A stretch of DNA of 31,256 nt from an uncultured Clostridia bacterium (GTDB lineage Bacteria > Bacillota > Clostridia > Christensenellales > Borkfalkiaceae): assembly GCA_945834965.1 (NCBI GenBank), contig CAMAHZ010000001.1:1-31256 (forward strand), in the 5' to 3' direction. Position 1 is the stretch's first letter; each line of letters opens with the position of its first letter. Shown here one piece after another: positions 3,545 to 31,256 of this stretch. Below the pieces are notes generated by a model. That model was not told where the DNA came from and did no database searches. It saw nothing but the letters and a program-made list of their open reading frames with translations. The position numbers and the translations under genes were made by a program.

Positions 3545-3582
3545 AACCGAGCTTGTAAGTCAATTTGCAGGCTCGGTTTTTT
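3545..3582 (+). terminator. Rho-independent terminator of ORF1
   Basis: Stem AACCGAGCTTGTAA / TTGCAGGCTCGGTT (14 bp with 2 G-U pairs), loop GTCAAT, T-run 3577-3582; 38 nt after the stop codon. Confidence 0.9.
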
Positions 3583-3771: not shown

Positions 3772-3800
3772 TTGAAATATTGACAACGACACTATATAAT
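3772..3800 (+). promoter_or_regulatory. sigmaA/sigma70 promoter P1 of the giant gene
   Basis: TTGAAA (3772-3777), 17-bp spacer, TATAAT (3795-3800). The upstream DNA is very AT-rich (3661-3780 is ~17% GC by hand count), consistent with an UP element. Predicted TSS ~3807. Confidence 0.75.
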
Positions 3801-3806
3801 AAGGTT

Positions 3807-3963
3807 GTATAGGTGTACAGGTGTGCTCGTATACACTTTTTGCTATGCCGTCCGGACGGACGGTTTAGGCATACGCGCGCACACCCGTAAGCGTGCTATG
3901 CGTGTATGCGCAAGGCGCGTTCAAAAGGCAAAAATTTTCGGAATACAGAGTTTGTTTTAAAGT
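3807..3963 (+). promoter_or_regulatory. Structured GC-rich 5' leader (candidate cis-regulatory RNA, family unassigned)
   Basis: 3841-3920 is ~62% GC. Visible helices: 3837-3844/3927-3934, 3848-3853/3858-3863, 3869-3882/3893-3909 (GTAA in the loop), and competing pairings 3844-3849/3868-3873 and 3820-3826/3879-3885. Confidence 0.4.
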
Positions 3964-3969
3964 AGGTGA
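3964..3969 (+). promoter_or_regulatory. Ribosome-binding site of the giant gene
   Basis: AGGTGA 4 nt before ATG 3974. The ORF-track start at 3893 (GTG) has no RBS and sits inside the structured leader. Confidence 0.75.
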
Positions 3970-3973
3970 AACT

Positions 3974-6900
3974 ATGAAGAACAAAAAACTACATAAAGTC
4001 AATCAAAGCAATCAAGTAGATGCAGGGTTCACGCACGGTGAAACTATCCGTGCAGATATACGCCGCAAAAAGCTGTGGCGCATAGCTTTGTCCTGCGTTT
4101 TGTTTATAATCTTGGCGGCGTCGACCGTCTTAGGATTTGTCGGTTTAGGCGGCAAGTCCCCTTTAAACGATAGCTCAATCGACCAGTCGAACGACGTTGC
4201 ATACGCCGCCGACGAGATTTATTACAATACTACCTTAAACAGCAGTTATCCTGCAAGGACGGCGCAATATAGCGATTCTTATTATGCCAGCAAATGGAGA
4301 ACTGCCGTAAACAATAGCGGTACGTTCACGCTTGATAATGGCGACTGGGTTGCAACGCCTAAAGCAGGTGAAGAACACCCGATTATTTCCCACTACTACT
4401 ATAACAGTTCTAATTACACTTACGCTTCACGTTATTTTGATGGTATTTTCAGAACTGAATTCGGTAGGGATTGGACTGAAGTTGATATTGATAGTAACGG
4501 TACTATTGAAAAACAGTTTGTAAACACGAGAAATTCTAATCAAGCAAATTCATATAATGCGGCGTTTTACAATGACTTTGATATTGCGTCGAGCGGTGAT
4601 TACTTTGGCTTGTCTAAAAACTACTCTGGTGCGCTCTTCGTGCCTAAAGGCAAAAAAGTCACGATTAATTTAAACGGGCGTAAAATAGACCGTAACCTTG
4701 TTACCGCCCCCACGGGTTTTGACGATAACGGCAAAATTACCGGCGGTGGTCTCGGAAGGAGTATGTATAACGGCTACGTTATAAGGGTAGAAGGCGAGCT
4801 CGTAATTACGGGTACGGGTGCTATCACGGGCGGTTGGAGTGAAAGTGCTGCTTCTGGAATATACGTCACGAACGGTGGTAAGCTTACTATAACCGGCGAC
4901 GTGGATTTGTCAGGCAACTACGGCGGTTCGCCTATTTATGCGGACGGCACAGCAAGTGAATATTCGACCGTTACCATAGATGGTTCTGCTATTACCGACG
5001 GATTTGATTTTACGGGCATTTGTGCGTATGAAAAGCAAGAAAACGGTACGTATACAGGTAAGCCGTCCGTGACGACGACGTATAATTACAAAACTAGAGT
5101 CAATAATCAGTATACTTGGGCTGATACAAGCAACTACTCTGTTTCGTCCTGTGCCGTGCAGGTGTCGAGCTATGTAAAGCTCAATATGACAAAATGTAAT
5201 ATTACGAACAACTCGGGTGCTTACGGTGCCATATACGCAACTTCGTATTGCGATGTGGTGCTTAATGACGTAAATATAACGGACAACTATGGCAGTAGTT
5301 GCGGTGGTATTTATATAAGCGACCATAGCACACTAACGCCGACAAACGTAAAAATTAATAATAATACAGCAGGTTCGTACGGCGCGTTATATATTAGCGG
5401 CGGCTCGGGTTACGATACGATAGTTGACTTTGGCGCAGGGTGCGAAATTAAAAATAACACGGCGACAAGCGGTACCGGCGGCGGTTACGCCACCAGTTAC
5501 GTAACGTTAAGTTTTACGGGTTGCACTATTTCCGATAACACCGGTTACACGGTCGGCGGTATTTGCGTAGGTTCATACAGTACGCTGAATATGACCGACG
5601 CAAGCTTAACTAACTGTAAATCAACGTATCCGAGAGATTACGGTTACGTTGGCGGCGTCAACGTAAACACCAACTCGACTTTCAATTTCACAAACAGTAC
5701 TATAAGTGATTGCAGCGGCTTGGTCGGCGGCGTAACTGTTTATAACAGCAGTAGGTTCAATTTTATATCCGGTACTATCACGAAAAATAAGAGCGTAGGA
5801 ACCGGGGCGTCAGGAAGCGCCGTTGGCGGCGTATACGTGGGAAGCAGTTATTGCGTGATGACTATGGGTACGAACGATACCGATAGCTCGGACGACGACG
5901 ACTGTATCATAAGCTATAACGAAGGTCCCGTCGGCGGCGTAAGTATAACTTCTTACAGTACGTTCAATTTCGAAGGCGGACAGGTCGTAGGAAATAAGAA
6001 TACGGTAATTAGCAGTTCTTACGTAAACGTAGGCGGCATTTACTGCGAAACCAGTAACATGAATATGTCGGGCAACGCCTTAGTTTCGCTCAATAAGGGT
6101 ATTGTCGGCGGTATTTCGTTCTACGGTGTTTCTAGTAACGATTGGGGTTTCCTTAAAATTGACGGCGGCAGAATAACCCAAAATACTTCGCTTGCCAACA
6201 GTACGAATAATATTCCCGATTACGCTGTCGGCGGCATTTATTTGCTCTATTACTCAAAGACGACCATGAACGGCGGCGAAATTACTAACAACGTCGGCAG
6301 GTTGGCGGGTGTCTGCAACGTGAATTCCAGTTCGTTTACTATGAACGGCGGTAAAATTTCACGCAACCGTTGTAACTATTCGTACGACCTAAACAGTGTA
6401 GCCGGCGTTTATAACGACTCTACGTTTATAATGAACGGCGGCGAAATCAGCCATAACTACGCCCAGAACGATGATAAGTCGGAAATGCAATACGGCAGCG
6501 GCGGTATGGTGAACCGTGGTACTTTCACCATGAACGGCGGTACGATATCCAACAACGTCGGCTTAGGTAAGGTGCGCGGTGCAGGCGGTATCGGCTCTTC
6601 CGACGGTTCGGGCAACATCTATCTTCGCGGCGGCAAAATAGTAAACAATATCGGCTATATCTCGGGCGGTATATTTAAGTGCTATAATTCAGGCTTATAC
6701 GTTCAGGGTAATCCCGTAGTTAAGAATAACTACTACGTAGAAGAAACTTCTTACGATAACTATAGCACCGCAACTAAATATCCCAACGATATAGACTTAC
6801 ACTGCGGAAGAATTTTCCCCCAGTACGAAAATAGTCCTACGTTTAACTATAGGAATAATCTTATAGCGGTAGACGGTATGCTTAACAGCGGCGCAGAGTT

Positions 6901-9900
6901 GTACGTCGTAAAGTATCCCGATAACTACAGGACTGACGCACAAGGCTGTATAACGAGCGGTTACGGCACGTACAATTCACTATATCATCCTAACACGTTC
7001 TTCCATCCTTCGCAGTCCGATTTGTTCACGACTGATAAAAGGACAAACTCAAGCGGTGGAATAGAAGCGTCGCTGTATAGCTATGTCGACGCGCAAAACT
7101 GGTCGGACGCGGTAAGAAACAGCTCTACGGCAAATCCCTTGACGGTTACGCTTTACCACGACTGGACTGCAACCGACTGTACGTACGTTGCTTACAATAG
7201 TTATAATAAACGCCGTTTCAGGGCAATGTTCAACTATGAAACGGAGAGTAGCAACAATGGCTTCCATAACGGCGCGTTGCACGTTCCTGCAGGTTATTCC
7301 GTAATTTTAGACTTGAACGGGCATACCATAGACCGCGATTTAAGCGAGACCTTAAATAATAACATCGGCTACGTTATATATAATTTAGGTACGTTAGAAG
7401 TAACCGATTCAAGCTCCGGCGGCAACGGTAAGATTACCGGCGGTTACAATACTTATACAGGTCCCAGCGAATATAATGCATACGGCACCGGCGGCGGCGT
7501 ACTAACCGGCGGTAACGCAACGTTTACGCTTTCAGGCGGTAATATTACGGGCAACGTTGCAAACTACGGCGGCGGTATCTTTAACCATTACGGTACCGTT
7601 AATATCTTCGGCGGTAAGATATCCGATAACCGAGCAGTAGGGCTTACGGAAAACGCTTCCGACTTATCCGGTAGCGGCGGCGGTATATTCCATTATAATT
7701 ATAGGAATAGCGCAGCTACGCTCAATTTAATGGGCGGCGTAATTTCGGGCAACTCTGCAAAGCGTGGCGGCGGTGTAGAGCATTTCTCGTACGACGAAGG
7801 TAGCGGTCAAACCCTTAAGACCTATTTAACGGGTGACGCGTCAATCGTCAATAATACGGCGACAATCTCCGGCGGCGGTATCGACGTTTACAGACTTAAT
7901 ACCTACTTTGCTATGGGCGAACACCCCATAGTGGAAAGCAACACTTTAAACGGTAACCCCGACGATATTCACCTGCCTTCTACGTCTATTGCAGGCACGC
8001 CGAACGTAGACAACGGCTTAATTACAATCGTATCTACGTTAGACGGCAGTAAGTCCAAAAAGTACGGCATATATAGGGATATAGGCTATACTTTCACCGT
8101 CGATTTCAAGGTGAACAACCCTTCCGATTCCCCTGCGGATTACTTCGAAGCGCAGAAGGACGGCTACTACGTTTCCACCGACAGCGACGGCAATGGTCAG
8201 CTTATCTCTAACCACGGTAACGACAACTGGTTCAGCGCCGTTACTATGTCCAAAATTTTTGCCGCAAAGAAGTACACGGTCAAGCTTACCGAAAACTGGG
8301 AAGCGGTAGATAACGCTACCACCGACTTTGCAACTTCGCTCCACGGCAACGAGACTGTGGATAAGAGTACGTCAACGGCTAATCCTTATTGTTACGGTGC
8401 AATGAATGTTCCTACAGGGACGAGCATAATTCTCGACCTGAATGGTTACACCATCGACAGAATTTTAGCAAGGGGCGTAGGCGGCACTAAGTACGGCTAC
8501 GTAATTTCAATGCACGGCGGCACTCTGTCCATAAGGGATACGTCTGAAGATGGCAACGGTAAAATCACCGGCGGCTGGGTTGATAACGCTTTCAATACCT
8601 ACTACGGCGGCGGTATTTCGATGTTCAACGATGCCGACCGTTTGGATATCAGGGGCGGCTCGATAACGGGCAACAAATCTACGGGCGTATATAACAATAC
8701 TTCGCCTGTCGGCGTCGGCGGCGTTGCAGTTTGGGCGACCAAAGCACAGCTTACGATGGTAGGCGGCTCGATAAACGGCAATCTTGGCTCGTTTGCAGGC
8801 GGTATCGGCTTCAATGTGTTAACTGCAAACACCTTCAACCTTGGCGGCAGTGCAAAGGTTTACGACAACTTTAAGGGCGACAGAGAGACCGATTTCGGCG
8901 GCGGCGAACCTAACGACGTATACAATCCCGCGGCAACTTCGGGTACTACCGTTGCTCAAATGCAGGATACCAAAAACTTTAAGATAACTATAGTCAGCAA
9001 GTTCAACGACGACGCTCATATAGGTATTTGCCGTCCCGACGTAAACAACAGCCTTCTGGCAGAAACGAACGGTAACGTATTTACTACCAGCTATGCGCAG
9101 TACAACGTGGACGCAAGCGGCAACGTAATCGACCCTACCAAGTACTTCTTCCCGTCCGATTCTAACAGGTCGCACATTAAGACGTACGCTCCCCAGACGG
9201 GTGCCAACAAAGGTGCGGTAGAAGTTACTATCTGGAACGTCGACTTAGAGATGAACTGGTCAAACGCAATTGCTGCGAACGTAAATGCGCTTACAGGCTC
9301 TCCTATAACCGTAAAACTTGAGCACGACTGGATTGCAGACGATAACGGCTCGCTCGGTAAGGGTACCGGTTTCTCTACAAACGGCGCGCTTGAAATGGGG
9401 CAGAGTAATATAATACTCGACTTGAACGGCTACACCATAGACAGGCGTTTGTATAGTCTGGGCAAGAAACTTGCAAACGGCTACGTAATACAGATGTCCG
9501 GCACTTGCCGCCTTGAAATTATAGACAGTTCTGCGGCAAAAACCGGTAAAATTATGGGCGGTTATACCACGACCACCGGTCAGGCAGGCGGCATTAACAT
9601 CATTTCGGCAAACGCGTACCTTACCATAAACGGCGGTACTATAACCGAAAACAAGGGTTATGACGGCGGCGTTGCAACCTACGTTGAAAGCTCGTATAAG
9701 ACGACGAACTACTTTGCAATGGGCGGTTCTGCGCTCGTAGTCGGCAATAAGGACTTCTACGGCAAGACTAAGAATATCAATCTTCGTGCAAAGTATAATC
9801 AGTATATTACGTTGCTCTCAGCGCTCACTAAGGGCGGTATGGACGGCGAACAGAGCGGTGTCTATAAGGAAAGCTCTTCCGACTTTACTAAAAACTTCGG

Positions 9901-24900: not shown

Positions 24901-27900
24901 TCCCGACTATACTCTCGTCGGCAGCTTAACGTCCGGCACGATATTCACGATAGGTAAAAAGGATATCGTCCTTGACCTGTTGACCACAAGGGTAAATATA
25001 GGTATTCCTACCCAACTGCAAATCAAGGGTAACGACGGCGACGCACCTTTGAACTATTCGATTGAAAACACGTCGGGTCAGGCGACTATCGACGCAGACG
25101 GCTTGTTTACACCTGAAAAGATGGGTTCGGTAATGGTTACCGTATCCGCTGAAGAGAGTGAAAACTATCTTGCAGGTTCAGTTACTAAGCTCGTTATAAT
25201 CGACAGAAGCTCACTTACCCTTACGATGGAAAACACCACCGTTAAGTACGGCGAGACCCTGCTTCTTGAAGTTGAAGGCAACGTTGAAAACAGCCCTATA
25301 CTGTATTCAGTTATCGACTCTACAGGTTCTGCAATCGTCATCGGCGGCGATACGCTTAAACCCTTAAGGGCAGGTACCGTTATAGTCAGGGTAAACATTG
25401 CCGAAACGACTAACTTTGCGGCAACCGAAGTTGAATTTGAAATAACCATAACGCCTATAAAGGTCGAACTCGTTTGGGGTAACTTTGAATTTACATACGA
25501 CGGTATCAACAGGTTTGCACCTACGGCTAAAGTCTCCAGCGGACTTATTAACGGCGAAACGTGCAACGTACTCGTACTCGGCAGTCAGCTTGACGCAGGC
25601 GAATACGATACGGCTTATGCGGCTTCGCTCGATAATCCTAACTACACGTTAGAAGGTGCAAACGTAAGAGCGCCTAAGTTCGTCATCAAAAAGGCTGACC
25701 CCGTAATCATATTCAAGACTACGGCGGTAACGATAAACGTTCCCACCAAGCTTGAAATCGAAGGCAATATGGAATTCGGTTCAATCGAATTTACTATGGG
25801 TACCGTCGGTCCCGAAGTAACGCCTATAGGCGAAGCGACGATAAGCGGCGGCGTATTAACGGGTACAAAGCTCGGTTACGTACATATTATCGCAACCGTA
25901 ATGCCCACCGAAAACTATAACGGCGGCAGCGTCGAGTGCGATATTCTGGTTGAAAAACCTGAAGCGCCCGTCGACTTAGAGATTACCGAAGTAACCTACG
26001 GCGACACGTTAGAACTCAACGTAATTATCGACACCGACGAAATAGGCGGATACTTGTTGTCGGTTGAAAGAATAGACGGCAACACGGGCAACGCTTCGTT
26101 AAGCGACAATACCTTAACGGGTCTTGCTGCGGGTGAAGTTTACGTAGTGATTTCAACTACGGAAACCGAATCCTACAAGGCTACGAATAAAAAGATATTA
26201 GTAACGGTTAAGCCTATCGTTGTAATCGTTGAGTGGACAGACACCGAATTTGACTACGACGGTACGGAAAAGACGCCTACGGCGACGATAACCAACTTAA
26301 TCGGCTCCGACGTTTGCTCGCCCGTCGTTTCAGGTCAGATTAACGCAGGCGAAGGGCTTGTGGCAACGCTCACCGATACGGGCAACCCCAACTACACGGT
26401 AGAAGGTTCGGATACGGCGGCAACGACGTTCACGATAAGACCGAGAGTGGTTACTCTTGAATGGGATTTGACCACGACGTTGACCTATAACGGTTACGAG
26501 CAGGCGCCTAAAGCAACAGTCTCGAATCTCGTTGACGGCGACAAGGTAGAAGTGACCGTAAGCGGCGGAACAGACGCAGGCACGAATACGGCGACGGCAA
26601 CGGCTTTGGATAACGCCAACTACACGTTGGAAGGCGCAGAAATCACCACCGACTACGTAATTGAACAGTACGAAGTATACATTGCTTGGGGTGAATTAAC
26701 TCTCGTCTACAACGGCAGCAAGCAGGCGCCCGAAGCAACGGCGATAGGCACGCTCAACGGCGATATCGTAAAGGCGAACGTAACGGGTAACGGTAAGGAC
26801 GCAAGGACTGCTTCTTACACCGCGCAAGTAAATTCGCTTAACAATGCCAACTATAAAGCGAAAGCGCCCGACGAGAACGCGCCTACAGACGCAGAAGCAG
26901 GTCCCGTAGCCGGCAACTTAAAGACCGATTACTACATCACGGCGGCAAAGATAACCTTCTTGTCGGCGCAGTACGAAGTAACCTACAACGGCGAAGCACA
27001 GAACCCTGTAATTGAAATTGATTACCTTAACGCAACGGATAAACTTACTTGGGCATTCGAAGGCGGCAATAAGACGAACGTCGGCGAGTACGAAGTTAAG
27101 CTTAAGATTACGGGCGGCGACGGCGAATCAATGAACAACTACTATCTTGCCGAAGAAGACGCAACCAAGACGTTCAAAATCGTTCCTAAGACGGTAAAAA
27201 TCAAGGTTACGACGATTGACAAGACGGCTGAATACACGGGTTCGGCGGTAAGCATTTCCGACTGGTACACTCTCAACTGTGACGAGTTTGTCGGCGCAGA
27301 AAAAGACATGACCGTATTAGAAGTGTTTGCAATGAACACCTTAAAGCTCACGCCGCAGTACGAAGTGGACGGCGAATTAACTCAATCTGTCGGCTTGCGC
27401 GGCAAGTACAAGATTGTGCCTATACTTCCCGGCGAAGGCAGTTTGAAGGGCAGTGCGAACTACGTTGCGGAATTAGTTGTCGACGAAGACAACTACGGTA
27501 TGTTAACCATATCGGGCGGCGACGCGCTCAAGCTCGCAGCAGATTCAACGTTTGATTTCATCTATGAAGAAGTCAAGGACGGTAAGTATCCTGAAATTCG
27601 CCGTAAGACCTATACCGAAAAGGGTTGGGTACATGGTAAGGACGATACCGACTTCGATAGAGTCGTACTCGGTAATATAGGACAGTTTACATCCGTAGGT
27701 ACGTTATTGAATAACATTGATGCGGACCAACTCGATTATATCCGTGTTTACAGTAATAAGGGCGTACTAATCTATAATTGCGGTAAACCTGCGGAAGGTA
27801 TATCGGAAGAAGAATTGTACGATACCGGACTTTACTCGGTAGGTACAGGTTGGCGTGTTCTCTACGGTCAAGAAGAAGATATGGCAGACGTAGTATATAT

Positions 27901-28111
27901 CTCAGTCCTTGGCGACCTTAACGGCGACGGTGCGGTAACAGCAGCCGACATAACGGCTATAGGTAACTATATTAGAGAAGTCGATATGTTTGAAGACGTA
28001 GAAAGAAGACTTGCAGCTATGCTTAAAAACAGCGGTCGAATTAACGCCGCAGACATATCGTCGTTAGGTTTAATTATCAGGGGCGTAAGGGATACAGAAA
28101 GCTTCTTCTAA
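3974..28111 (+). CDS. Giant (8045 aa) secreted adhesin-like repeat protein: beta-helix modules + Ig/MBG stalk + C-terminal X-module/dockerin-like domain
   Basis: Uninterrupted 24,138-nt ORF. N-terminal basic region plus h-region (LWRIALSCVLFIILAASTVLGFVGLGG) and a possible AYA|A cleavage site. 14 modules carry 'NW..A / DW.A / GAL.VP / LDLNG.TIDR / GYVI / ITGG' motifs; ~34 Ig-type repeats follow; C-terminal GDLNGDGAVTAADITAIGNYI. No catalytic motif recognised. Confidence 0.9.
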   Translation: MKNKKLHKVNQSNQVDAGFTHGETIRADIRRKKLWRIALSCVLFIILAASTVLGFVGLGGKSPLNDSSIDQSNDVAYAADEIYYNTTLNSSYPARTAQYSDSYYASKWRTAVNNSGTFTLDNGDWVATPKAGEEHPIISHYYYNSSNYTYASRYFDGIFRTEFGRDWTEVDIDSNGTIEKQFVNTRNSNQANSYNAAFYNDFDIASSGDYFGLSKNYSGALFVPKGKKVTINLNGRKIDRNLVTAPTGFDDNGKITGGGLGRSMYNGYVIRVEGELVITGTGAITGGWSESAASGIYVTNGGKLTITGDVDLSGNYGGSPIYADGTASEYSTVTIDGSAITDGFDFTGICAYEKQENGTYTGKPSVTTTYNYKTRVNNQYTWADTSNYSVSSCAVQVSSYVKLNMTKCNITNNSGAYGAIYATSYCDVVLNDVNITDNYGSSCGGIYISDHSTLTPTNVKINNNTAGSYGALYISGGSGYDTIVDFGAGCEIKNNTATSGTGGGYATSYVTLSFTGCTISDNTGYTVGGICVGSYSTLNMTDASLTNCKSTYPRDYGYVGGVNVNTNSTFNFTNSTISDCSGLVGGVTVYNSSRFNFISGTITKNKSVGTGASGSAVGGVYVGSSYCVMTMGTNDTDSSDDDDCIISYNEGPVGGVSITSYSTFNFEGGQVVGNKNTVISSSYVNVGGIYCETSNMNMSGNALVSLNKGIVGGISFYGVSSNDWGFLKIDGGRITQNTSLANSTNNIPDYAVGGIYLLYYSKTTMNGGEITNNVGRLAGVCNVNSSSFTMNGGKISRNRCNYSYDLNSVAGVYNDSTFIMNGGEISHNYAQNDDKSEMQYGSGGMVNRGTFTMNGGTISNNVGLGKVRGAGGIGSSDGSGNIYLRGGKIVNNIGYISGGIFKCYNSGLYVQGNPVVKNNYYVEETSYDNYSTATKYPNDIDLHCGRIFPQYENSPTFNYRNNLIAVDGMLNSGAELYVVKYPDNYRTDAQGCITSGYGTYNSLYHPNTFFHPSQSDLFTTDKRTNSSGGIEASLYSYVDAQNWSDAVRNSSTANPLTVTLYHDWTATDCTYVAYNSYNKRRFRAMFNYETESSNNGFHNGALHVPAGYSVILDLNGHTIDRDLSETLNNNIGYVIYNLGTLEVTDSSSGGNGKITGGYNTYTGPSEYNAYGTGGGVLTGGNATFTLSGGNITGNVANYGGGIFNHYGTVNIFGGKISDNRAVGLTENASDLSGSGGGIFHYNYRNSAATLNLMGGVISGNSAKRGGGVEHFSYDEGSGQTLKTYLTGDASIVNNTATISGGGIDVYRLNTYFAMGEHPIVESNTLNGNPDDIHLPSTSIAGTPNVDNGLITIVSTLDGSKSKKYGIYRDIGYTFTVDFKVNNPSDSPADYFEAQKDGYYVSTDSDGNGQLISNHGNDNWFSAVTMSKIFAAKKYTVKLTENWEAVDNATTDFATSLHGNETVDKSTSTANPYCYGAMNVPTGTSIILDLNGYTIDRILARGVGGTKYGYVISMHGGTLSIRDTSEDGNGKITGGWVDNAFNTYYGGGISMFNDADRLDIRGGSITGNKSTGVYNNTSPVGVGGVAVWATKAQLTMVGGSINGNLGSFAGGIGFNVLTANTFNLGGSAKVYDNFKGDRETDFGGGEPNDVYNPAATSGTTVAQMQDTKNFKITIVSKFNDDAHIGICRPDVNNSLLAETNGNVFTTSYAQYNVDASGNVIDPTKYFFPSDSNRSHIKTYAPQTGANKGAVEVTIWNVDLEMNWSNAIAANVNALTGSPITVKLEHDWIADDNGSLGKGTGFSTNGALEMGQSNIILDLNGYTIDRRLYSLGKKLANGYVIQMSGTCRLEIIDSSAAKTGKIMGGYTTTTGQAGGINIISANAYLTINGGTITENKGYDGGVATYVESSYKTTNYFAMGGSALVVGNKDFYGKTKNINLRAKYNQYITLLSALTKGGMDGEQSGVYKESSSDFTKNFGVYHSDESPVHYFTADSGDNYVIESPTGEAALYTMDNYSNWLFAVNESVATGYERTVMLVSDWEAPEGMFGKSASDNLAFHNGGALRVPGGAKIILDLHGYKLDRNLEFYEDYGYVIYVDGKLTVRDTYDGDDRYGSITGGKNKLSDSYAYYSGGGINVCGGNLFMEGGVVEGNSSMGRSDYSTGGLYVSGSNAHIYMTGGIVRNNYGEYAGGINVPNASSVYLGGSAQVYNNRLNTSKQVDIRPISDSIGNKVQIYSAFTSDANIGVSYIGNNYFANLSQNIFTTNFNNLNPGVDPSTVFHYADPLAYKVISLPSANNTGLEAAVECIDNEQNWRQAVAASTATVKKTVTLTRDWVAYDYETFKTAFGVDGSAYSYGAIYLPTNKSIILDLNGYTIDRNLTSKDARTNGMVFLVNGNLEITDSSSSQSGKITGGNSTDTAGGIKYTNSSGSNGSLKLTGGTITGNVGTQGGVEVCWTSNVAAPLYMGGSALVTGNKDIKNHDSDIYGTSAVQMIEIVSPLTAAGKTGFQRPGVGDFSINFVKYMRSADPAEYFTSTDPMYVYKYETGEAGLYTNDNAMNWEYAIRASVEGNKKQIIFKLVSDWTAESGMFGTDSNNTAYTNDNGDGKGGLNIPANADIIVDLNGYTLDRGLDAAISEGYIFRIYGFLTVRDTSKEGNGIITGGFNSYNSNQYAAQSSVFYVHSGAKLNIEGGTITGNHATGAVSSVITTNYANAPITITGGKIMGNYGGDLNSDNGAGAIFVRHSNTVNLGGSPIILDNKHNRGYDCDVRFENTGIYVQIIGSFTSKAKIGVAPNTQVNNWATTTGGVQFTYNYSSHHAAADYPDRYFVGRWMQSHSITRVTTTSGAEGAFWCTENYTNWINAVNASSMAKPIKFELSEDWIADPHLTYTTSFHPTDTSCYTYGTINLPANRSIVLDLKGYTIDRNLVNATDNGYVINVLGRLEIIDSSNKHTGVITGGYNTLGGGGIVVQSGGTLCIKGGTITGNTGKIDGSGVYIMDNGHVEIGGYAQVNDNYNADGADSNVYLNKADEKIKIVSDLFGKELIGVSRPSNGYVTEGFQENMYGYSPLDYFVSEHKNYYGIESGDGELFFLSPDNNTNWQYAVAESLRTGKTQTVRLTEDWFASEDSTYTTVFGTGTGYYNGALYVPAGAYIELDLAGYTVNRNLNKPVRYGSVMTVLGSLSVVDSSEEGTGTITGGSLLQVDTHFQAAGVHVGSKARFELLGGTIGAVVDEESSGDFVINRESTNGATNVASGVYVVNSGTFVLKNAKVVGNVSGNAGVYLENGAIFTVGGDAVVENNANSAGQNKDIVFNNYTSVINVDSKLTSGAHLGVYRTVNNYDTRSFGGSVITSSFGRYNTDAVTNYFFSSDPTHGIIEYTGVGSREAALFCYDNATNWKNATNASYSTRTEMTVKLYSNWTADEDNVNTTFGTDGVAYYYGALRVYPNVQIVLDLNNYMLDRGLTALNVQSTNNTGYVIYVDGGGSLTITDTSLGGAGLITGGFNTGDNIDAANFASGVHVCSGGKLTMDGGNIEGNKGVGLYLAGNNLFSLGGKSSVINNKFRAGASANIFLNDVTQLINVVSEFDENSRFGVIRTKGSTNFGSGTLTKNYSRYNKSVEPSTYFVSDNDKYNVIDEGFFDDESMEAALIGKDNYTNWAYAVKTSLANGGRAQVCTLFEDWTAEQHKDFTTTFDSANSGVAGFYRGALYVPAGCHVILDLNGYTIDRALTAAQADGQVIWIRSGTLVIRDSSAEQTGKIIGGYSNGTSNYGYGSGAAGGIAVYTGTLSIEGGTITGNKMSHSTAYAGGVYLSGGSTFNMTGGKITENYGAFTGGVCAYDNATVNFGGSPYISGNNLINEFGATLDTERNLYFTSDTNLIAISNFINDDAKVGISVNPYSISANGRFITSGWQDLNNDKKVTDVFYSDSVKQYALSDYNQDDRHDGMLFCRDNQVNWQKTVQASINEGKQKTFVLYENWKASPSGSVTSFGSGTGYYGGALCVPSNASIILDLNGHTIDRGLYDHATYYDYGWVIFVQGALKVIDSTAKYDKNGNIVQGIIKGGYVYDGGAIHQDWYGSVDVEAGFFTENKAIRHGGAIFVYRSYVNNSVGVTIGGTALFDKNYRVSGNDMYRDDIGFYYSDHILKIGSEMSTGAIEDRNSIYVRRDRIGTFTSGWGKYNPTVKPEMRFKSAISTYRIGSSGAGALKEATMLSNNNNDNWVFAINNSRSASGAPELFTLISDWTADNYNVGSYNTRFGSDGNAYRNGALLVPADANIVLDLNGFTLDRNHALNLDSQYSIYNAVIIVEGTLQIIDSSVTNQGTIKGGSYGVFLNSAKASVTIGGLLITEDTVLTGNEVNIYGNDKYGGNISGNSLYGVYVNGGTFTATGGKVTGNTASDVFVSKTNSTINVGENAYIYTENRKVGSGLRLESSLAMINIISTLSEDAKIGYMRQGVGRLTNGWGLYNGNDTDPFETVFVSEEPDKYKSYTDMFDDYKEITVSSYDNGINWQFAVDKSLATGEAQQFILYECWTAAEHETYTTAFGTGTAYRNGALYVPEGANVVLNLNGHKLNRNLTSAIQNGMVIFVEGTLTIIDDQSVSDYNAECCELVDGKRPEGQITGGNNSTGSSAAAIYVGQTGSLTLAAGQIVGNKATSESSSSGAIFTAGTFEMSGGAISGNSGYGAGAVYVSNSGTFNFSSGVITENKAESGGGAVYTSGKMNMTGGSIDSNQGLIGGVYVASGGQLTMEDNAYITNNIGSSAGAVFVNNGSTTFFKMNGGCINDNSAVSAGAVYAAGVVEISGGEIKGNTASGTTLNDGGGAIYVSGTGNVTVTGGEITGNTGENGIRVHASGTIGVGGSARIYENIARNKTNVGGADVEANDYCDIYLTVGTRMVNVVSEFNDDAKVGVYRLGAGTFTSGYGMYNADMPAKYFVSNRSIYSVSLSVADDATDCEASVGVAVDPEPHAFDTPYEYSGDWENIIVDIDTDMVNIGTLDEGVRVYENPITGAISIQAVNAGTYAVSFTLKDNHCWLDGTVTEKIIIGKIAPKTVVLEWEPELHDGESCVYDGVTTHGPVVKVADSSLCTNVLTGELDTCEVAVSGRQITASPAGGHTATAVGLSNVNYKLGVVGNEYKYVVEKAERPQFQIVSYEAFYKTPTEMVVEGNLENGAVTFSLDEASQAYATVDPATGELTINKYSKTVDTYATLIAVAAETANYKESTATKQILCVPGELKTVISPVEMVYGDTATLELENYDSSEMGAVTWSISNGDDGGRASMSGNQITALNIGTINVTAQVAASSFYKASTIKGTITIKRRPITIDWGESLSVEYTGEPQTLATPSYEGVLTNDTAMFRLNVYKAGYAGWEEAKVAPTWTNAGKYDVGVLPSNSNYELANAEDCFRIFEIRKAVLNLRFTSDTAYYDTPFYPEVEGNVGGGVLTISLTGYSEEFNAEGTYKYDAANKLYTAWALGTLKFTANVKATDNYESASLTGSYKIIKAEMPLKVEPLTLTYGDSKVQLTAHYFEPSGEKVDVTDKVTFELIEGADLADLATENGLYLVNANGAGTIKVKAYTTEAIGNYVPTEIEVEIEIKPKEIGNVGGGNPDDPDDPSGGGGGGTEIDPGDNPSVAIPRVKWTYADKYIYNGDIQQPEATLMGATDICSIVGIETYTLDGVKVDAIGVGTYKVRVLLDNPNFILGESSYGEFTIEPLPVVLTWADTEFVYNAQEQAPTATVSNIKGDDVCNVTVLGTKNAGDNLNAVATGLDNPNYTLVDGENLTTVFFIDPYEIEVEWGETELVYTGLAQAPTAKATGLFDGDSCSVIITGAEINVNDPADPYLATATGLTNSNYTLGDKKPATQYNINSADLIIEFKQTEVVYGSPFTLEVTGNKSGAKVTFTLGDGAEKATLGSGNWFTPVDVGQVTVTASIAATGNYNAAEVTQVITISPRPIEILWSDLEFTYDGEEHNATAAVDNAVNGDLINLTLSAAQINAGEYTAQVLGLDNKKYTLEGGKDLYVGFTIKKRLVTVEWDNLEFIYNGKEQTPTATIGNLIGDDECSAIVRGAVDAANRHLAEIVTLSNPNYTVEGSDDATVRFNIKPKLVMLEWSNTTLTYDGTEQKPTATVTNLCEGDDCDVLVSGAQTNVGTYTATATGLSDTNYTLIFDEDEVAEADRPEIEKEFEIVKADITVVLTNSEVVFGSQITLSLLSNPENGEVTYVAEDGTGSAEITGQTLKGTKAGTVSVTVTVADTDNYNGGTETFEITVRKLAVAIEWTQESEFTYNGEVQTPTPTISNVVDGTTCNITEIKGESDAGNSKIASVVAIDNDNYTLEGGTNIIKTYVIKPLPVSGIVWDEKRDYPYNGERQGPKATAEGILEDDECEVLVSGYKINAGEYTAEITGLSNSNYSLDGISNLTADYKILVSKPTITITTTEIILGTREQIKISGNVGGGDVTYELIEGSDYGELSGDTLYGKRLGTVTIRVSVGATANTDAATVEGDIQIIKGKAPLSLVKTVVTYGSNLTLVADDDGGNLRDGEGNYLFGDVTYTILPMYDGKIATIEEGNILRPLSAGDLMLKMSVEENEYFDATEELISITVKARVVTLLWTVGEYTYNAQEQSPTAEVTNLVGDDECLVKVSTGKNAGDYTSRALELSNRNYTLEKAGNTEVAFTINPCLITLEWGDTELEYNGEEQIPDVTLVGLYENDECDVNLEVVEGEHYKVGDYTLRTDGLTNSNYYLESDTELPFSIVRADINPKIEPKTVTYSTSEELSILGNFDDAPYTMEVLKHESVGAGTLELVEGKYVFTATRTGTVKIKLEIEETDNCNAYSGVLEIEVTKAEREVDLITIEGVYGEDLTLEISGNEDDAGTVKYLVTDAEMASIEGNVLTPKHAGTVTVTIIVSETSNYKDEIRTVAQINISPRIVEISWKDTEFIYNGSEQAPEAEVSNLLEGDECGVTVVGGKVNAGTYSDARVYALDNPDYTLVGSLTSGTIFTIGKKDIVLDLLTTRVNIGIPTQLQIKGNDGDAPLNYSIENTSGQATIDADGLFTPEKMGSVMVTVSAEESENYLAGSVTKLVIIDRSSLTLTMENTTVKYGETLLLEVEGNVENSPILYSVIDSTGSAIVIGGDTLKPLRAGTVIVRVNIAETTNFAATEVEFEITITPIKVELVWGNFEFTYDGINRFAPTAKVSSGLINGETCNVLVLGSQLDAGEYDTAYAASLDNPNYTLEGANVRAPKFVIKKADPVIIFKTTAVTINVPTKLEIEGNMEFGSIEFTMGTVGPEVTPIGEATISGGVLTGTKLGYVHIIATVMPTENYNGGSVECDILVEKPEAPVDLEITEVTYGDTLELNVIIDTDEIGGYLLSVERIDGNTGNASLSDNTLTGLAAGEVYVVISTTETESYKATNKKILVTVKPIVVIVEWTDTEFDYDGTEKTPTATITNLIGSDVCSPVVSGQINAGEGLVATLTDTGNPNYTVEGSDTAATTFTIRPRVVTLEWDLTTTLTYNGYEQAPKATVSNLVDGDKVEVTVSGGTDAGTNTATATALDNANYTLEGAEITTDYVIEQYEVYIAWGELTLVYNGSKQAPEATAIGTLNGDIVKANVTGNGKDARTASYTAQVNSLNNANYKAKAPDENAPTDAEAGPVAGNLKTDYYITAAKITFLSAQYEVTYNGEAQNPVIEIDYLNATDKLTWAFEGGNKTNVGEYEVKLKITGGDGESMNNYYLAEEDATKTFKIVPKTVKIKVTTIDKTAEYTGSAVSISDWYTLNCDEFVGAEKDMTVLEVFAMNTLKLTPQYEVDGELTQSVGLRGKYKIVPILPGEGSLKGSANYVAELVVDEDNYGMLTISGGDALKLAADSTFDFIYEEVKDGKYPEIRRKTYTEKGWVHGKDDTDFDRVVLGNIGQFTSVGTLLNNIDADQLDYIRVYSNKGVLIYNCGKPAEGISEEELYDTGLYSVGTGWRVLYGQEEDMADVVYISVLGDLNGDGAVTAADITAIGNYIREVDMFEDVERRLAAMLKNSGRINAADISSLGLIIRGVRDTESFF
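4292..18830 (+). repeat. 14 tandem parallel-beta-helix-type modules
   Basis: Module starts (KW/NW codons) at 4292, 7097, 8225, 9254, 10016, 10898, 11636, 12536, 13256, 14147, 14927, 15821, 16610 and 17480. Each has a capping LDLNGxTIDR-like motif and GG[IV]...I..N rungs reminiscent of pectin-lyase-like/Pmp beta-helices. Each ends in 'P..YF.SD...Y...EA.L'. Confidence 0.8.
18840..27520 (+). repeat. Stalk of ~34 Ig-fold repeats of two kinds (~20 MBG-like, ~14 bacterial Ig-like)
   Basis: Type A: 'W...F.YNG.EQ.P.ATV.NL..DD.C.V.V.G..NAG.YTA....L.N.NYTL' (~75-80 aa). Type B: 'YG....L...GN...G.VT......G.A.I.G..L.....G.V.V......T.NY' (~82-90 aa). Counted by eye. Confidence 0.8.
27524..28108 (+). other. 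C-terminal X-module + dockerin-like domain of the giant protein
   Basis: Dockerin-type Ca-binding loop DLNGDGAVTAAD at 27914. The second repeat AAMLKNSGRINAADI is degenerate. The preceding ~130-aa module ends in 'VGTGW...VYISVL' and is paralogous to the ORF3 C-terminus. Confidence 0.75.
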
Positions 28112-28159
28112 TCTATTAAAAAACATATATCCGATAGGTGCATATTGTTAAGAGCAATC

Positions 28160-28188
28160 TTGACAATATGTGCCGTCGGGTGTATAAT
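28160..28188 (+). promoter_or_regulatory. Perfect-consensus sigmaA/sigma70 promoter P2 for ORF3 (and probably ORF4)
   Basis: TTGACA (28160-28165), 17-bp spacer, TATAAT (28183-28188). Confidence 0.9.
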
Positions 28189-28252
28189 TATGTTAAAATA
28201 TGGCAGGTATTGTAAAAATATCTCAATAAAAGGCAAAAATGCTTGCAAAATT

Positions 28253-28293
28253 GAAGGCGAGCTCGCCTTCGTTCCGTGTTTTTGACACGGAAC
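28253..28293. promoter_or_regulatory. 18-bp perfect palindrome directly followed by a 9-bp hairpin in the ORF3 leader
   Basis: GAAGGCGAG|CTCGCCTTC (28253-28270), then GTTCCGTGT-TTTTG-ACACGGAAC (28271-28293). Confidence 0.6.
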
Positions 28294-28346
28294 AGACAAA
28301 TCTTTAATAAGAAAGAAACAATAAGTTCACTTTAACGGAGGTGCTT

Positions 28347-30596
28347 ATGAAAAAAGTTTTTAATAAAACCTTTGCGGCTATAATGCTTGCAATAGCAATG
28401 GTGCTTGCGCTGTTCGGCGGACTGTTTTTCGCCGGTCACGGCGAAGTTGCCAGCGCTGAAGGCAAGGACGTAACCGTAAAAATCGAAGCTAATACTAAGA
28501 CCTTTTCTAAAGGTACAACGTTTAACGTTACGGTAACTGTAAACTCAACGATAGCTAATGCAATTTTCGATACGGTTACGTTAAACTTAGGCCCCGTAAA
28601 CTCATCAAAAGACGGGTTCTTAGAAGATAAATGTAATATGTTGACGTTTGTTCCTAATAACTCGAGAGTGGTTTTTAAAAAGAGTTCTAACATTTCGTCA
28701 TCGGCTAGCTTTGCAGATAACAGTAAAGCGTATACGACGGGGTACGCCACAAACGGCTTTGCTATGATATCAATAGCAAACACCAGCGGTACTGCATTAG
28801 CTTGTACGGAAGATATTACCTTTACGTTTGGTTTAACGATAGGTTCTGACGTTGCCGATGGTACCGAATTTGAAATAAGCGTATTGCAGACGGGAAACGT
28901 AAACTCGTACTCTTATATGCCTAACGGTGCTTCGGAAAGTACGATTATTAACACGAGCGATAGTGCTAAATTCGAGGTTCAACCCCTTAAATTTACCGTT
29001 AGAGAGCCTAAAAGCGATAACAACTTAAGCTCTATAAAAGTTGGTCAAGGTGAGACAGAGGCGGAATTAGAAACTTTAGACACCAGCTCGACCAGCCTTG
29101 CAATAACCGTTAAAGACCCTTTAAAGCCCATATCCATTTTACCTACGGCTTCGGACGCGGAAGGTGCAACAATTAAAGTAAAAAAGACGACCGATTCCAC
29201 TGATACGGGTAAGGAAGTAAAGTCAGGCGAGAAAAATGATTTCGAAATTCCTGCCGACGGTAAGCTTACCATAGTCGTTATAGCTGAAGACGGAACGGAA
29301 AAGGAATATAATTTGACGGTTACTGTGGTAGGCGCAACGCTTACCGCACTTACCGCAAAGTCGGATACTAAAGTTACGGGCGTAACCGAAGGCGTAAAGG
29401 AAACGTTCGATTCCAAAACGCTTGCATACACCGTAATAGTACCCAGCGATGCAACTAAGGTCGCAATAACCGCAACCGTCTCAACGGGCAACAGCGCAAG
29501 TACAACTATGGCGCTCTCCAAGACGGGTAGTTGTACAATTCCTTCCACCGCAACCAGCGGAACGGCGTTCGACGTAACGGGCGTAGCAGACGGCGACACC
29601 TTAACGATTAAGGCGCAGGCGGATAACGGTGCGGGTACTAAGTCCGAAACTGCTTACGTTGTAACCTTCGACGTCAAGGACGTAGACGTGGCGATTACTC
29701 TTACCGTAGTCGGCAAAACGACGAATAAGACCTTCGCAAACGACGCAACTAAGGCAACCGATAAGGGCGTTGATTATTTCTATCTCGTTACAGGTGAAAC
29801 TAACGCGGCGTCCGACGTAACTATTACGTTCCCTACTACAGCAACTAAAGTTACTTTGGATAGCGTTGCGTATACGGCTTCTAAAACTCTTGCCGCAGGC
29901 GAACATACCGTATTCGTTACGGCAGAAGCAGGAAATACCAAGGAATACAAATTTATATTAAAGGCATACACGGCTCTCCAGTTAAAATCCGGCGTTGTTG
30001 CAGACTTTATGTATGAAGAAGTTACTACGGCAAACGCTTATCGCAGAACATATAAAGAAAAGGGCTTAACTCACGGCAAGGACGACCTTGATTTCACAAG
30101 ATTTGTAATCGGTCAGATTGCTACCGCTACGCCCGTAAACGTTTTCATTACCAACTTTGAAACGAGCGTTGCAAACAGCATAAAGCTTTATAAAGCGGAC
30201 GGAACGCTTATATACAATTTGGGTAGCCCTGCCGACGGCTTCACTTCAGCCGACTTGAACAATGACGATATGGGTATAGGAACGGGTTGGAAACTTGAAT
30301 ACATAGTAGACGGCGACGTTGAAGAAACAGTTTATCTTTCCGTACTCGGTGATTTGGACGGCAACGGCTATTCAAATGCGTTGGATATAACTTTCCTTGG
30401 TAATATTATCAAGGGCGTAGACGCAAACATGCAGAAATTCAACAACAACGTTGAAACCAGACTTGCCGCATATATTTCTAACACGGCGAGCTATTATGCC
30501 GGACAACCCAGAATTACGGCGGTTGAAATCCCTTACGTAAGCCGTCATATCAGGTTGGAAACTCTGTTGACGACAAGATTCTATACCGGTTCATAA
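28347..30596 (+). CDS. Secreted cohesin-like / cadherin-like x3 / X-dockerin protein (putative adaptor scaffold), 749 aa
   Basis: RBS GGAGGTG (28337-28343) before ATG 28347; the track's GTG start at 28341 lies within the RBS. Signal peptide ends ...EVASA|E (28347-28457). Cohesin-like 'VKIEANTKTFSKGTTFNVTVTV...FTFGLTIGSDVADGTEFEISV' (~28458-29010). Cadherin-like beta-sandwich motifs 'DNNLSSIKV', 'FDSKTLAYTVIVPSDATKVAITAT' and 'AEDGTEKEY/AEAGNTKEY'. C-terminal GDLDGNGYSNALDI. Confidence 0.85.
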   Translation: MKKVFNKTFAAIMLAIAMVLALFGGLFFAGHGEVASAEGKDVTVKIEANTKTFSKGTTFNVTVTVNSTIANAIFDTVTLNLGPVNSSKDGFLEDKCNMLTFVPNNSRVVFKKSSNISSSASFADNSKAYTTGYATNGFAMISIANTSGTALACTEDITFTFGLTIGSDVADGTEFEISVLQTGNVNSYSYMPNGASESTIINTSDSAKFEVQPLKFTVREPKSDNNLSSIKVGQGETEAELETLDTSSTSLAITVKDPLKPISILPTASDAEGATIKVKKTTDSTDTGKEVKSGEKNDFEIPADGKLTIVVIAEDGTEKEYNLTVTVVGATLTALTAKSDTKVTGVTEGVKETFDSKTLAYTVIVPSDATKVAITATVSTGNSASTTMALSKTGSCTIPSTATSGTAFDVTGVADGDTLTIKAQADNGAGTKSETAYVVTFDVKDVDVAITLTVVGKTTNKTFANDATKATDKGVDYFYLVTGETNAASDVTITFPTTATKVTLDSVAYTASKTLAAGEHTVFVTAEAGNTKEYKFILKAYTALQLKSGVVADFMYEEVTTANAYRRTYKEKGLTHGKDDLDFTRFVIGQIATATPVNVFITNFETSVANSIKLYKADGTLIYNLGSPADGFTSADLNNDDMGIGTGWKLEYIVDGDVEETVYLSVLGDLDGNGYSNALDITFLGNIIKGVDANMQKFNNNVETRLAAYISNTASYYAGQPRITAVEIPYVSRHIRLETLLTTRFYTGS

Positions 30597-30631
30597 ATTT
30601 AGGATATTAATAGATTACTATATCAGCCAAC

Positions 30632-30670
30632 TTGCTTTGCCCGTCGGCGTTCGCCGACGGGGCAAAGCAA
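30632..30670 (+). other. Long GC-rich intergenic stem-loop without a U-tract (RNA stabiliser/processing site or atypical terminator)
   Basis: TTGCTTTGCCCGTCGGC-GTTC-GCCGACGG(G)GCAAAGCAA: 17-bp stem with one bulged G. It is followed by ATGTG, and there is no T-run on either strand. Confidence 0.7.
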
Positions 30671-30710
30671 ATGTGTTTAATTGAACGAATAAGAGAGGAT
30701 ATGTCCGCTT

Positions 30711-31256
30711 ATGAATAAATCGAAAAAAGTAATAGCGGTGGTGGTAACCGTCGTTATGGCGTTATTGCTTACCGCTATGGTTCTGTTACTTTGCATATTA
30801 CCTAATAAAAATAATAATACTGCCGGCTCAGACGACGGTACTACTCAAACTCCGGGAGATGGTACGGGAAATAACGGCGGCTCTTCGGATAATAACGAAG
30901 GAAACTCCGGTTCGGATAACTCTGGTTCAACGGGTAATCCGTCCGATTCACAAAACCCTGCCGAAGAGTTTACGTATATTACGCCTTCTGCAATAACGCT
31001 CACGTCGGATAAAACCGAGCTTACGGCAGGCGATACGTTCACTATTTCAGTAGAGATATTTACCGATAGAACTGATTTGTACTGGCAGGCTATCGACGTC
31101 GTTATAGGTCCTATGACCGACGAAACGACGGTATCAACCGAAATTTCTAACAAATTTGAGTTGGTTGATTATACGATAAACGATAAATTTTCGAGCAGAA
31201 GCGCTTGGGATAATAACACCAATGATAAGTTTAATAGCACCGTAGATATAAACGGT
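30711..31256 (+). CDS. 3'-truncated membrane-anchored protein: N-terminal TM, Gly/Ser/Asn/Asp linker, cohesin-like domain (missing from the ORF track)
   Basis: RBS GAGAGGA (30693-30699), ATG 30711, open to the window end (182 codons): MNKSKKVIAVVVTVVMALLLTAMVLLLCILPNKNNNTAGSDDGTTQTPGDGTGNNGGSSDNNEGNSGSDNSGSTGNPSDSQNPAEEFTYITPSAITLTSDKTELTAGDTFTISVEIFTDRTDLYWQAIDVVIGPMTDETT... The domain aligns with the ORF3 N-terminal domain. Confidence 0.85.
   Translation, partial: MNKSKKVIAVVVTVVMALLLTAMVLLLCILPNKNNNTAGSDDGTTQTPGDGTGNNGGSSDNNEGNSGSDNSGSTGNPSDSQNPAEEFTYITPSAITLTSDKTELTAGDTFTISVEIFTDRTDLYWQAIDVVIGPMTDETTVSTEISNKFELVDYTINDKFSSRSAWDNNTNDKFNSTVDING

Follow-up and report, generated by a model that had tools for sequence, protein, structure and literature searches.

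How might a gut bacterium with a small genome hold a protein of about 8,000 residues on its surface when that genome (85% complete) yields neither a sortase nor an S-layer homology (SLH) domain? The question is raised by contig C1 of an uncultured Clostridia bacterium, the whole of which (31,256 bases) is the window analyzed here; the metagenome-assembled genome (MAG) of the host comprises 1.31 Mb in 191 contigs, with 46% GC. Every long open reading frame (ORF) of the window lies on the + strand, as do all window features located by coordinates below. The genes in question are the giant ORF2 (3974..28111 from an ATG, 8045 aa, or 3893..28111 from a GTG, 8072 aa), ORF3 (28347..30596 from an ATG, 749 aa, or from 28341) and the first 182 aa of ORF4 (30711..31256), which is cut by the contig end; the system as treated here also takes in the rest of ORF4 and the next gene, ORF5, both on contig C58.

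We propose that this locus is probably a self-contained cohesin-dockerin surface-display system without recognized enzymes, which holds the giant on the cell. Two secreted proteins, the giant and ORF3, would present the same C-terminal tail of an X module plus a dockerin (X-Doc), and these dockerins would plug non-covalently and in a Ca-dependent manner into cohesins. The giant fibre would thereby be held by a membrane-anchored stalk protein, probably with ORF3 as adaptor, and the cohesin-dockerin plug would substitute for sortase or SLH anchoring. The folds come from structural models and profile comparisons; we infer from them, and from the arrangement of the genes, that the dockerins and cohesins bind one another and how they are wired.

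Dockerin tails and cohesin-like domains

The dockerin of the giant (27908..28108) is recognized by Pfam, with Dockerin_1 (PF00404) scoring 29.5 bits on the protein and 32.5 bits in a genome scan against a gathering cut-off of 22.9. ORF2 has no LPxTG motif and no C-terminal transmembrane segment, so that the first-pass annotation, which had described an 8045-aa protein ending in a dockerin and devoid of these anchors and of SLH domains (none was found genome-wide), is borne out. An X module of about 135 aa (27506..27907), conserved along with the dockerin, precedes it, and an X module stands directly upstream of the dockerin in 26 of 26 aligned tails. ORF3 ends in the same kind of tail (29952..30587, with the dockerin part from about 30339); over their last ~200 aa, ORF2 and ORF3 share 40% identity (E 2e-41). 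A profile of the X-Doc family matches the solved dockerins 5lxv_B (5.7e-5) and 2ccl_B (2.3e-4). An AlphaFold2 model of the giant’s tail, built from a 26-sequence alignment (pLDDT 93.3), has three terminal helices, and its last ~62 residues superpose on the type I dockerins 4fl4, 2ccl_B and 1ohz_B (TMt 0.74-0.86, root-mean-square deviation 1.3-2.4 A); the modeled tail of the giant thus has the three-helix fold of a dockerin. The X module is also modeled with high confidence and has no structural match in the PDB, including the X module of CttA (TM-score 0.26 to 4iu2_B); it may represent an undescribed fold.

The partners of these dockerins would be supplied by ORF3, ORF4 and ORF5, which carry one cohesin-like domain each, all of one family (hhalign 99.3%, E 2e-20). 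A BLASTP comparison of the ORF3 N-terminus with ORF4 was not significant; the paralogy, which had been claimed in the first-pass annotation together with a transmembrane segment and a linker in ORF4, is visible to profile comparison. The ORF3 domain (28452..29015) was characterized by AlphaFold2, Foldseek and hhalign. Its model, from a 70-member alignment, is a beta-sandwich (pLDDT 94.7, pTM 0.90) whose best Foldseek match in the PDB is the ScaC cohesin of Ruminococcus flavefaciens (5lxv_A, E 6.9e-7, TM-score 0.61/0.66). Cohesins make up about 44 of the first 50 matches and represent types I, II and III, with CohA2 of Clostridium acetobutylicum and the type III cohesin of ScaE among them. The cohesin fold is therefore modeled for ORF3 and extended to the ORF4 and ORF5 domains by homology, and the earlier description of ORF3, with a cohesin at its N-terminus and the X-Doc tail of the giant at its other end, agrees with the model.

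Sequence comparison points in the same direction. When the 70-member family was aligned by hhalign with 26 Pfam-positive cohesins taken from other Clostridia genomes, the probability was 87.3% (E 3.8e-6) over 115 colinear columns, and the controls stayed low (reversed profiles, <=1%; 20 column shuffles, <=0.1%; cadherin-like repeats, 3.6% and 1.3%). This gives moderate support for a remote sequence homology to true cohesins. The nearest clusters in the ESM Atlas are mostly annotated as Cohesin (scores of 0.84-0.87), and these serve as leads only. We conclude that the ORF3-type domain has a cohesin fold and belongs to a family that forms a remote branch among the cohesins. When 1.84 billion cluster representatives were searched exhaustively by HMMER with the family profile, 94 members (clusters at 50% identity) were returned and known cohesins were not reached. 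Three architectures, classed by length and domain position, cover nearly all members: proteins of ~730-830 aa resembling ORF3, of ~230-600 aa resembling ORF4, and of 880-2,500 aa resembling ORF5.

Several observations on the modules weigh against the proposal. On the dockerin side, the isolated ORF3 dockerin fails Pfam (10.6 bits, E 0.71), and both dockerins have a canonical first Ca loop, whereas their second lacks the usual Asp or Asn at positions 1, 3 and 5, being occupied there by Met, Lys and Ser in the giant and interrupted by an insertion in ORF3; two Ca loops with Asp or Asn at positions 1, 3, 5 and 12 are thus not present. On the cohesin side, Pfam Cohesin (PF00963) matches none of the window’s domains, nor anything in the host genome. 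Among the 70 family members, weak BatD/DUF11 hits, found in 18 (best 5e-6), outnumber Cohesin hits, found in 10 (best 2.4e-4); we conclude that the BatD/DUF11 matches stem from a generic first-strand motif. Searches of PDB sequences with the family profile gave no significant cohesin match, the ScaB cohesins appearing at a suggestive but non-significant E of 0.3-0.7, and matches to RUNX1 and Hoc in the same searches were set aside as noise. Thus, at the level of Pfam, the assignments of the first-pass annotation stand for the dockerin of the giant and fall for the isolated ORF3 tail and for all three cohesin-like domains; at the level of structure, Foldseek on the predicted models found both folds.

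One might then regard the two kinds of domain as non-interacting spacers, beta-sandwiches and EF-hands in proteins that are held by their own transmembrane anchors or released. The missing sequence-level membership in Cohesin and the degenerate second Ca loops would suit such a view, which we nevertheless consider highly improbable in light of how the modules are distributed. The X-Docs and cohesin-like domains of the host genome, exactly two and three in number, all lie at this locus; the two module types are adjacent in 10 of 10 loci examined, from two classes of bacteria; they are terminal in ORF3, ORF4, ORF5 and the window’s giant; and the X-Doc tail is better conserved than the remainder of the proteins that bear it.

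Architecture, proposed anchoring and wiring

Between its termini, ORF2 consists of two long repetitive regions. The first (4604..18772), delineated by Pfam Beta_helix matches, a recurring motif and a phmmer self-scan, comprises approximately 14 modules of 240-375 aa that extend to residue ~4,960, each carrying a DLNGxTxDR-type motif. The second (18890..27142), recognized from weak hits to the Pfam families MBG and MBG_2 and from the self-scan, is a stretch of ~2,800 aa of MBG-like or Ig-like repeats. Because this repeat stalk adjoins the X-Doc while the beta-helix modules lie far from it, a cell-proximal dockerin end is favored, and the architecture suggests an adhesive role for the giant. Within the stalk, one metatranscriptome assembly contains a variant with a 27-nt in-frame deletion at position 20792, a strain-level variation in length.

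The beta-helix region bears on whether the locus is instead a reduced cellulosome- or amylosome-type complex that displays catalytic lyases or hydrolases. Pectate lyases and GH28 enzymes are among the proteins built on a right-handed beta-helix. The giant has a match to Pfam Beta_helix (PF13229) at 4.8e-9 and the organism lives in the gut. The modules could act on polysaccharides instead of being adhesive only, a point that counts against our proposal; the Pfam match itself is a generic one. However, no enzyme family was recognized in the giant and no carbohydrate-active enzyme family was matched with Pfam or NCBIfam, and the statement of the first-pass annotation that no glycoside-hydrolase motif is recognizable in the window was upheld by Pfam for the giant, ORF1 and ORF3 and by NCBIfam for the giant and ORF1. 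No dockerin-bearing enzyme was found in the 85%-complete genome, neither X-Doc sits on a recognized enzyme, and with only two dockerins in the genome and a single cohesin per protein there is no scaffoldin with several cohesins. A series of fourteen repeated modules with an Ig-like stalk behind it has the look of a structural protein, and a catalytic complex of this kind seems to us very unlikely.

Which end of the giant faces outward may depend on its sole hydrophobic segment (4073..4156), which is either a long signal-peptide core or an uncleaved N-terminal anchor. The segment measures ~26 residues and comes after a long basic N-region; the nearest AxA site lies ~20 residues downstream, with none within 7 residues. 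The giant of a relative (G005) has the same layout. ORF2 may therefore stay in the membrane through this segment and anchor itself, which would tell against an X-Doc-based attachment. The topology would then be reversed, with the X-Doc as a distal tip that enters the cohesins at the tips of ORF5 proteins on the same or a neighboring cell and forms loops or intercellular links; the placement of the ORF5 cohesin at the far end of a ~1,600-aa stalk is compatible with this. We hold the reversed arrangement to be unlikely, since an AYA/AEA site follows the segment by 15-20 residues in both giants, and since the stalk sits beside the dockerin and the beta-helix modules are N-terminal, so that the usual polarity of a fibrillar adhesin needs the dockerin to be cell-proximal.

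If the giant is held through its dockerin, the remaining proteins would provide the adaptor and the anchor. ORF3 has a signal peptide with an ASA-E site, and between its cohesin-fold domain and its tail lie cadherin-like beta-sandwich spacers (29016..29951; Pfam PF12733, 4.7e-8). The portion of ORF4 within the window begins with a predicted signal-anchor transmembrane helix (30720-30809), followed by a low-complexity linker of Gly, Ser, Asn and Asp and by the first half of a cohesin-fold domain (30981-31256). The terminal 41 nt of C1 reappear near one end of C58, where the outermost 37 nt (L001 7661-7697) differ from C1 and the adjoining 41 nt are identical; the break in the assembly falls within ORF4, perhaps where strains differ. 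Positions 5-97 of the family profile match the end of C1 and positions 84-187 the end of C58, and the two halves of ORF4 tile a relative’s full-length homologue of 307 aa with an identical overlap of 14 aa. The join of C1 to C58 was accepted on the strength of this tiling, from which it follows that ORF4 has ~278 aa and consists of a signal-anchor helix, a low-complexity linker and one cohesin. The missing part of ORF4 was thus recovered, and the further cohesins that the first-pass annotation had thought it might hold were not there. In one ORF4 homologue (P0025, L007:12352-14091), approximately nine Cys/His-rich repeats lie between the transmembrane helix and the cohesin; they have paired Cys motifs and a conserved His, are zinc-ribbon-like in look, and would be extracellular by topology.

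ORF5 (1888 aa), the next gene on C58, encodes a signal peptide, an N-terminal cohesin, a stalk, a C-terminal transmembrane segment and a short cytoplasmic tail; the stalk spans ~1,600 aa and contains twelve stretches that match the Pfam Cadherin-like model (1.1e-45). The transmembrane segments of ORF4 (N-terminal) and ORF5 (C-terminal) were predicted by hydropathy only. Downstream of ORF5 are genes for a Pro/Gln-rich protein with a single transmembrane segment (L001:664-1323, - strand) and for a PRC-barrel protein with a Pro/Cys-rich tail (L001:54-518, + strand).

In the wiring that we favor, the dockerin of the giant would bind the cohesin of ORF3, and the dockerin of ORF3 would in turn bind the cohesin of ORF5 or ORF4. 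The cohesin of ORF5 would be carried at the tip of the cadherin-like stalk, and ORF4 would offer an extra, membrane-proximal site. Pairing the giant with ORF3 and ORF3 with ORF5 would leave no module without a partner, ORF4 being additional; direct binding of the giant to ORF5 is another possible wiring, and the chain from ORF4 through ORF3 to ORF2 put forward by the first-pass annotation is likewise one of several candidates. The phylogeny of the modules bears on this choice. Within the core group, giant-class and ORF3-class dockerins form separate clades (SH-aLRT 89 and 90) with class-specific residues in both helices (e.g., giant-class dockerins conserve a Tyr in helix 1), and the cohesins likewise fall into supported clades for ORF3 (96), ORF4 (97) and ORF5 (99). 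In the L005/P0020 lineage, the two dockerins are sisters with 60% identity, and the ORF3 and ORF5 cohesins cluster too. The parallel divergence of dockerins and cohesins, in what is a single event, is the pattern that interacting partners would show.

The same modules could also link ORF3 to itself. With one cohesin and one dockerin per molecule and a perfect-consensus promoter of its own, ORF3 might assemble head to tail into a polymer with ORF5 or ORF4 at its root and the giant as its cap, analogous to a pilus but independent of sortase. The similarity of the two dockerins and the clustering of the two cohesins in the P0020 lineage would suggest overlapping specificities; the separate, conserved classes of dockerins and cohesins in the core group favor distinct partners over one promiscuous pair, and the depth of ORF3 in the RNA libraries, a poor measure, is not markedly above that of the giant. 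Taken together, self-polymerization appears quite unlikely, and the chain from the giant through ORF3 to a membrane-bound cohesin is the arrangement retained below.

Gene order, distribution and signs of transcription

In every related locus found, the genes occur together, as expected if they form the single system put forward by the first-pass annotation. Eight related loci (L002/L015, L004, L005, L006, L007, L016, L017 and L020) have the same gene order: a giant of 6,700-8,000 aa with an X-Doc, an ORF3-like gene, an optional ORF4-like gene and an ORF5-like gene. Where the contig extends past the ORF5-like gene, a gene for a Pro-rich transmembrane protein follows (five loci: C58, L002, L004, L006 and L007), and then a PRC-barrel gene on the opposite strand (four loci: C58, L002, L004 and L006). 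L004, L005 and the Mollicutes-like loci lack the ORF4-type gene, which is dispensable there, whereas each locus examined has an ORF5-type anchor. Because ORF4 is missing from several related loci, it is not the essential anchor, and the first-pass annotation, which had assigned it this role, must be revised in favor of ORF5 on C58.

Two MAGs labeled Anaeroplasmataceae or Mollicutes encode a large protein with the same X-Doc, as an ORF of 3,325 aa in one and as a frame open over at least 2,682 aa and running off the locus edge in the other. In G001, the X-Doc protein has an MBG_2 domain and a Dockerin_1 match (28.3 bits) in Pfam, and its gene overlaps by 4 nt the next one, which encodes a 2,087-aa protein with a cohesin-family N-terminal domain, cadherin-like repeats and a C-terminal transmembrane segment; in G002, a cohesin-family match lies just downstream of the X-Doc. 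The X-Doc of the Anaeroplasmataceae protein lies ~120 aa from the C-terminus. An N-terminal cohesin suspected by eye in that protein was unsupported by Pfam and was dropped. Since X-Doc proteins are paired with cohesin-stalk-transmembrane proteins in these MAGs as well, the conserved core of the system is a two-gene unit, an X-Doc cargo and a cohesin-stalk-transmembrane anchor. A further MAG labeled Clostridium sp. (CP091735.1, near L021) has an X-module match with three in-frame TGA codons (G003:C1:110781-111239), and the adjacent cohesin-like match is a short frame of 152 aa; this copy is either a decayed system or belongs to a genome that reads TGA as a residue.

The closest named relatives of ORF3 are found in MAGs of ‘Candidatus Coproplasma sp.’; Coproplasma corresponds to GTDB UBA11940, in the family Borkfalkiaceae of the order Christensenellales, and has genomes of 1.4-1.7 Mb. 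Pig and bovine gut samples contain DNA near-identical to the window. Along with the dispensability of ORF4, the rarity of the system is a difficulty for the proposal: of 121 genomes drawn from the order, 2 gave a match to the cohesin profile, and three further species of the GTDB genus gave none. Given this rarity in order and genus, the locus is probably accessory and mobile.

ORF3 is preceded by a sigma-70 consensus promoter (28160..28188, 12/12 matches), and the giant gene by a promoter-like site (3772..3800, 11/12 matches) that follows a terminator-like hairpin (3545-3578). Contigs at least 99% alike, from four pig-gut metatranscriptome assemblies of three studies, cover the giant, ORF3 and ORF4, and several of those covering ORF3 begin at 28222-28382, just past its promoter. 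These data are consistent with transcription of the locus, with the reservation that contigs from RNA libraries are no proof, as such libraries can carry DNA. In one pig-gut RNA library, the contig over positions 15980-16739 reaches a depth of 66, about eight times that of its neighbors, which could reflect a similar repeat of another organism or a sub-transcript.

Upstream of the giant, ORF1 (1..3507, cut at its 5' end) is a syntenic neighbor without cohesin or dockerin and without a family match in Pfam or NCBIfam. It encodes a type I membrane protein with a large extracellular region, a transmembrane segment (aa 944-981 of the partial product) and a cytoplasmic tail of acidic Pro/Glu/Gln/Val repeats. 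In the relative G005, an ORF with an ORF1-like repeat tail (L024:1-528) lies directly upstream of the giant gene. ORF1 may be part of the same surface apparatus as the giant.

Known cohesin-dockerin systems and significance

The closest described system is the sca cluster of R. flavefaciens, in which the cellulose-binding protein CttA is bound through its X-Doc to the sortase-anchored cohesin of ScaE (PMC4266597, PMC5301203; PDB 4IU2/4IU3), a junction that is mechanically ultrastable and bears the adhesion load (PMC4266597, PMC5301203). At the locus described here, a non-enzymatic cargo would likewise be held by a C-terminal X-module-dockerin in a cell-anchored cohesin; the partner genes are clustered, an adaptor with a cohesin and a dockerin is present, the cohesins of ScaC and ScaE are among the best structural matches, and envelope-fixed cohesins are encoded nearby, given the predicted transmembrane segments of ORF5 and ORF4. 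The differences are also substantial. The anchor is a predicted transmembrane segment, reached through a 1,600-aa cadherin-like stalk or a short linker, instead of a sortase-processed LPXTG motif; the cargo is an 8,000-aa fibre of beta-helices and Ig-like repeats, whereas CttA is a protein with two carbohydrate-binding modules; the X module is of an unrelated fold; and, unlike in R. flavefaciens, the genome has no dockerin-bearing enzymes and the cohesins are unrecognized by Pfam. The locus is thus set apart from CttA-ScaE by its Pfam-invisible cohesins, transmembrane stalk, different X fold, giant cargo and closed, enzyme-free set of genes.

Cellulosomes and amylosomes in Clostridium thermocellum, R. 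flavefaciens and R. bromii (PMC4611034, PMC12484212) share with this locus the cohesin and dockerin folds and the logic of adaptor and anchoring scaffoldins; unlike them, it has no enzymes, one cohesin per protein, two dockerins per genome, and no SLH domain or sortase found in the incomplete genome. Many Clostridia have cohesins that Pfam recognizes (78 of a sample of 300 genomes). The toxin complexes of Clostridium perfringens are an example of cohesin-dockerin pairs outside cell-wall degradation. A survey of non-cellulosomal cohesin and dockerin modules also exists (Peer et al. 2009, cited in PMC10066038). The present modules resemble such known cases in that they would pair outside plant cell-wall degradation; unlike those cases, which are recognized by standard profiles, they form a closed syntenic set that would serve one giant protein.

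Giant proteins with dockerin-like elements and a proposed role in attachment have been described in small-genome Omnitrophota (bioRxiv 10.1101/2023.11.21.568195; PMC10066038). Those giants contain numerous EF-hand/dockerin and thrombospondin repeats internally and have C-terminal transmembrane regions of their own, and no partner cohesin genes are reported, whereas here a single X-Doc is terminal and the cohesin genes are adjacent. Gram-positive fibrillar adhesins combine a stalk of repeated Ig-like domains with a distal binding region and are anchored through LPXTG. The giant has the same layout, with its repeat stalk at the anchor end and specialized modules distal, but its proposed anchor is a non-covalent dockerin instead of a covalent sortase link. 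Our literature search returned no description of this system, nor of cohesin-dockerin modules in Coproplasma or Christensenellales. The first-pass annotation had not recognized such a system as described either; that view stands as far as the literature search goes, and CttA-ScaE and the non-cellulosomal precedents narrow the novelty.

What the locus may represent in general terms is a sortase-independent way for wall-bearing, reduced-genome bacteria to mount giant fibrillar adhesins: a closed cohesin-dockerin ‘adhesome’ with divergent cohesins on transmembrane stalks and the X-Doc as load-bearing plug, mobile and patchily distributed in Christensenellales-like Clostridia and Anaeroplasmataceae-like lineages. 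We give this broader view about an even chance. If binding is confirmed, the cohesin-dockerin toolkit would extend from the scaffolding of enzymes to the anchoring of one of the largest bacterial surface proteins. The standard profile misses a cohesin family of ~94 clusters (at 50% identity), so that surveys of ‘non-cellulosomal’ cohesins would undercount. The system, if real, would also give work on protein assembly and force spectroscopy a new set of X-Doc/cohesin pairs that are orthogonal, and perhaps a new fold of the X module. For the organism itself, it would give an account of how an uncultured gut Clostridium of ~1.5 Mb, with no sortase or SLH domain found, displays a protein whose gene takes up 1.6% of its genome.

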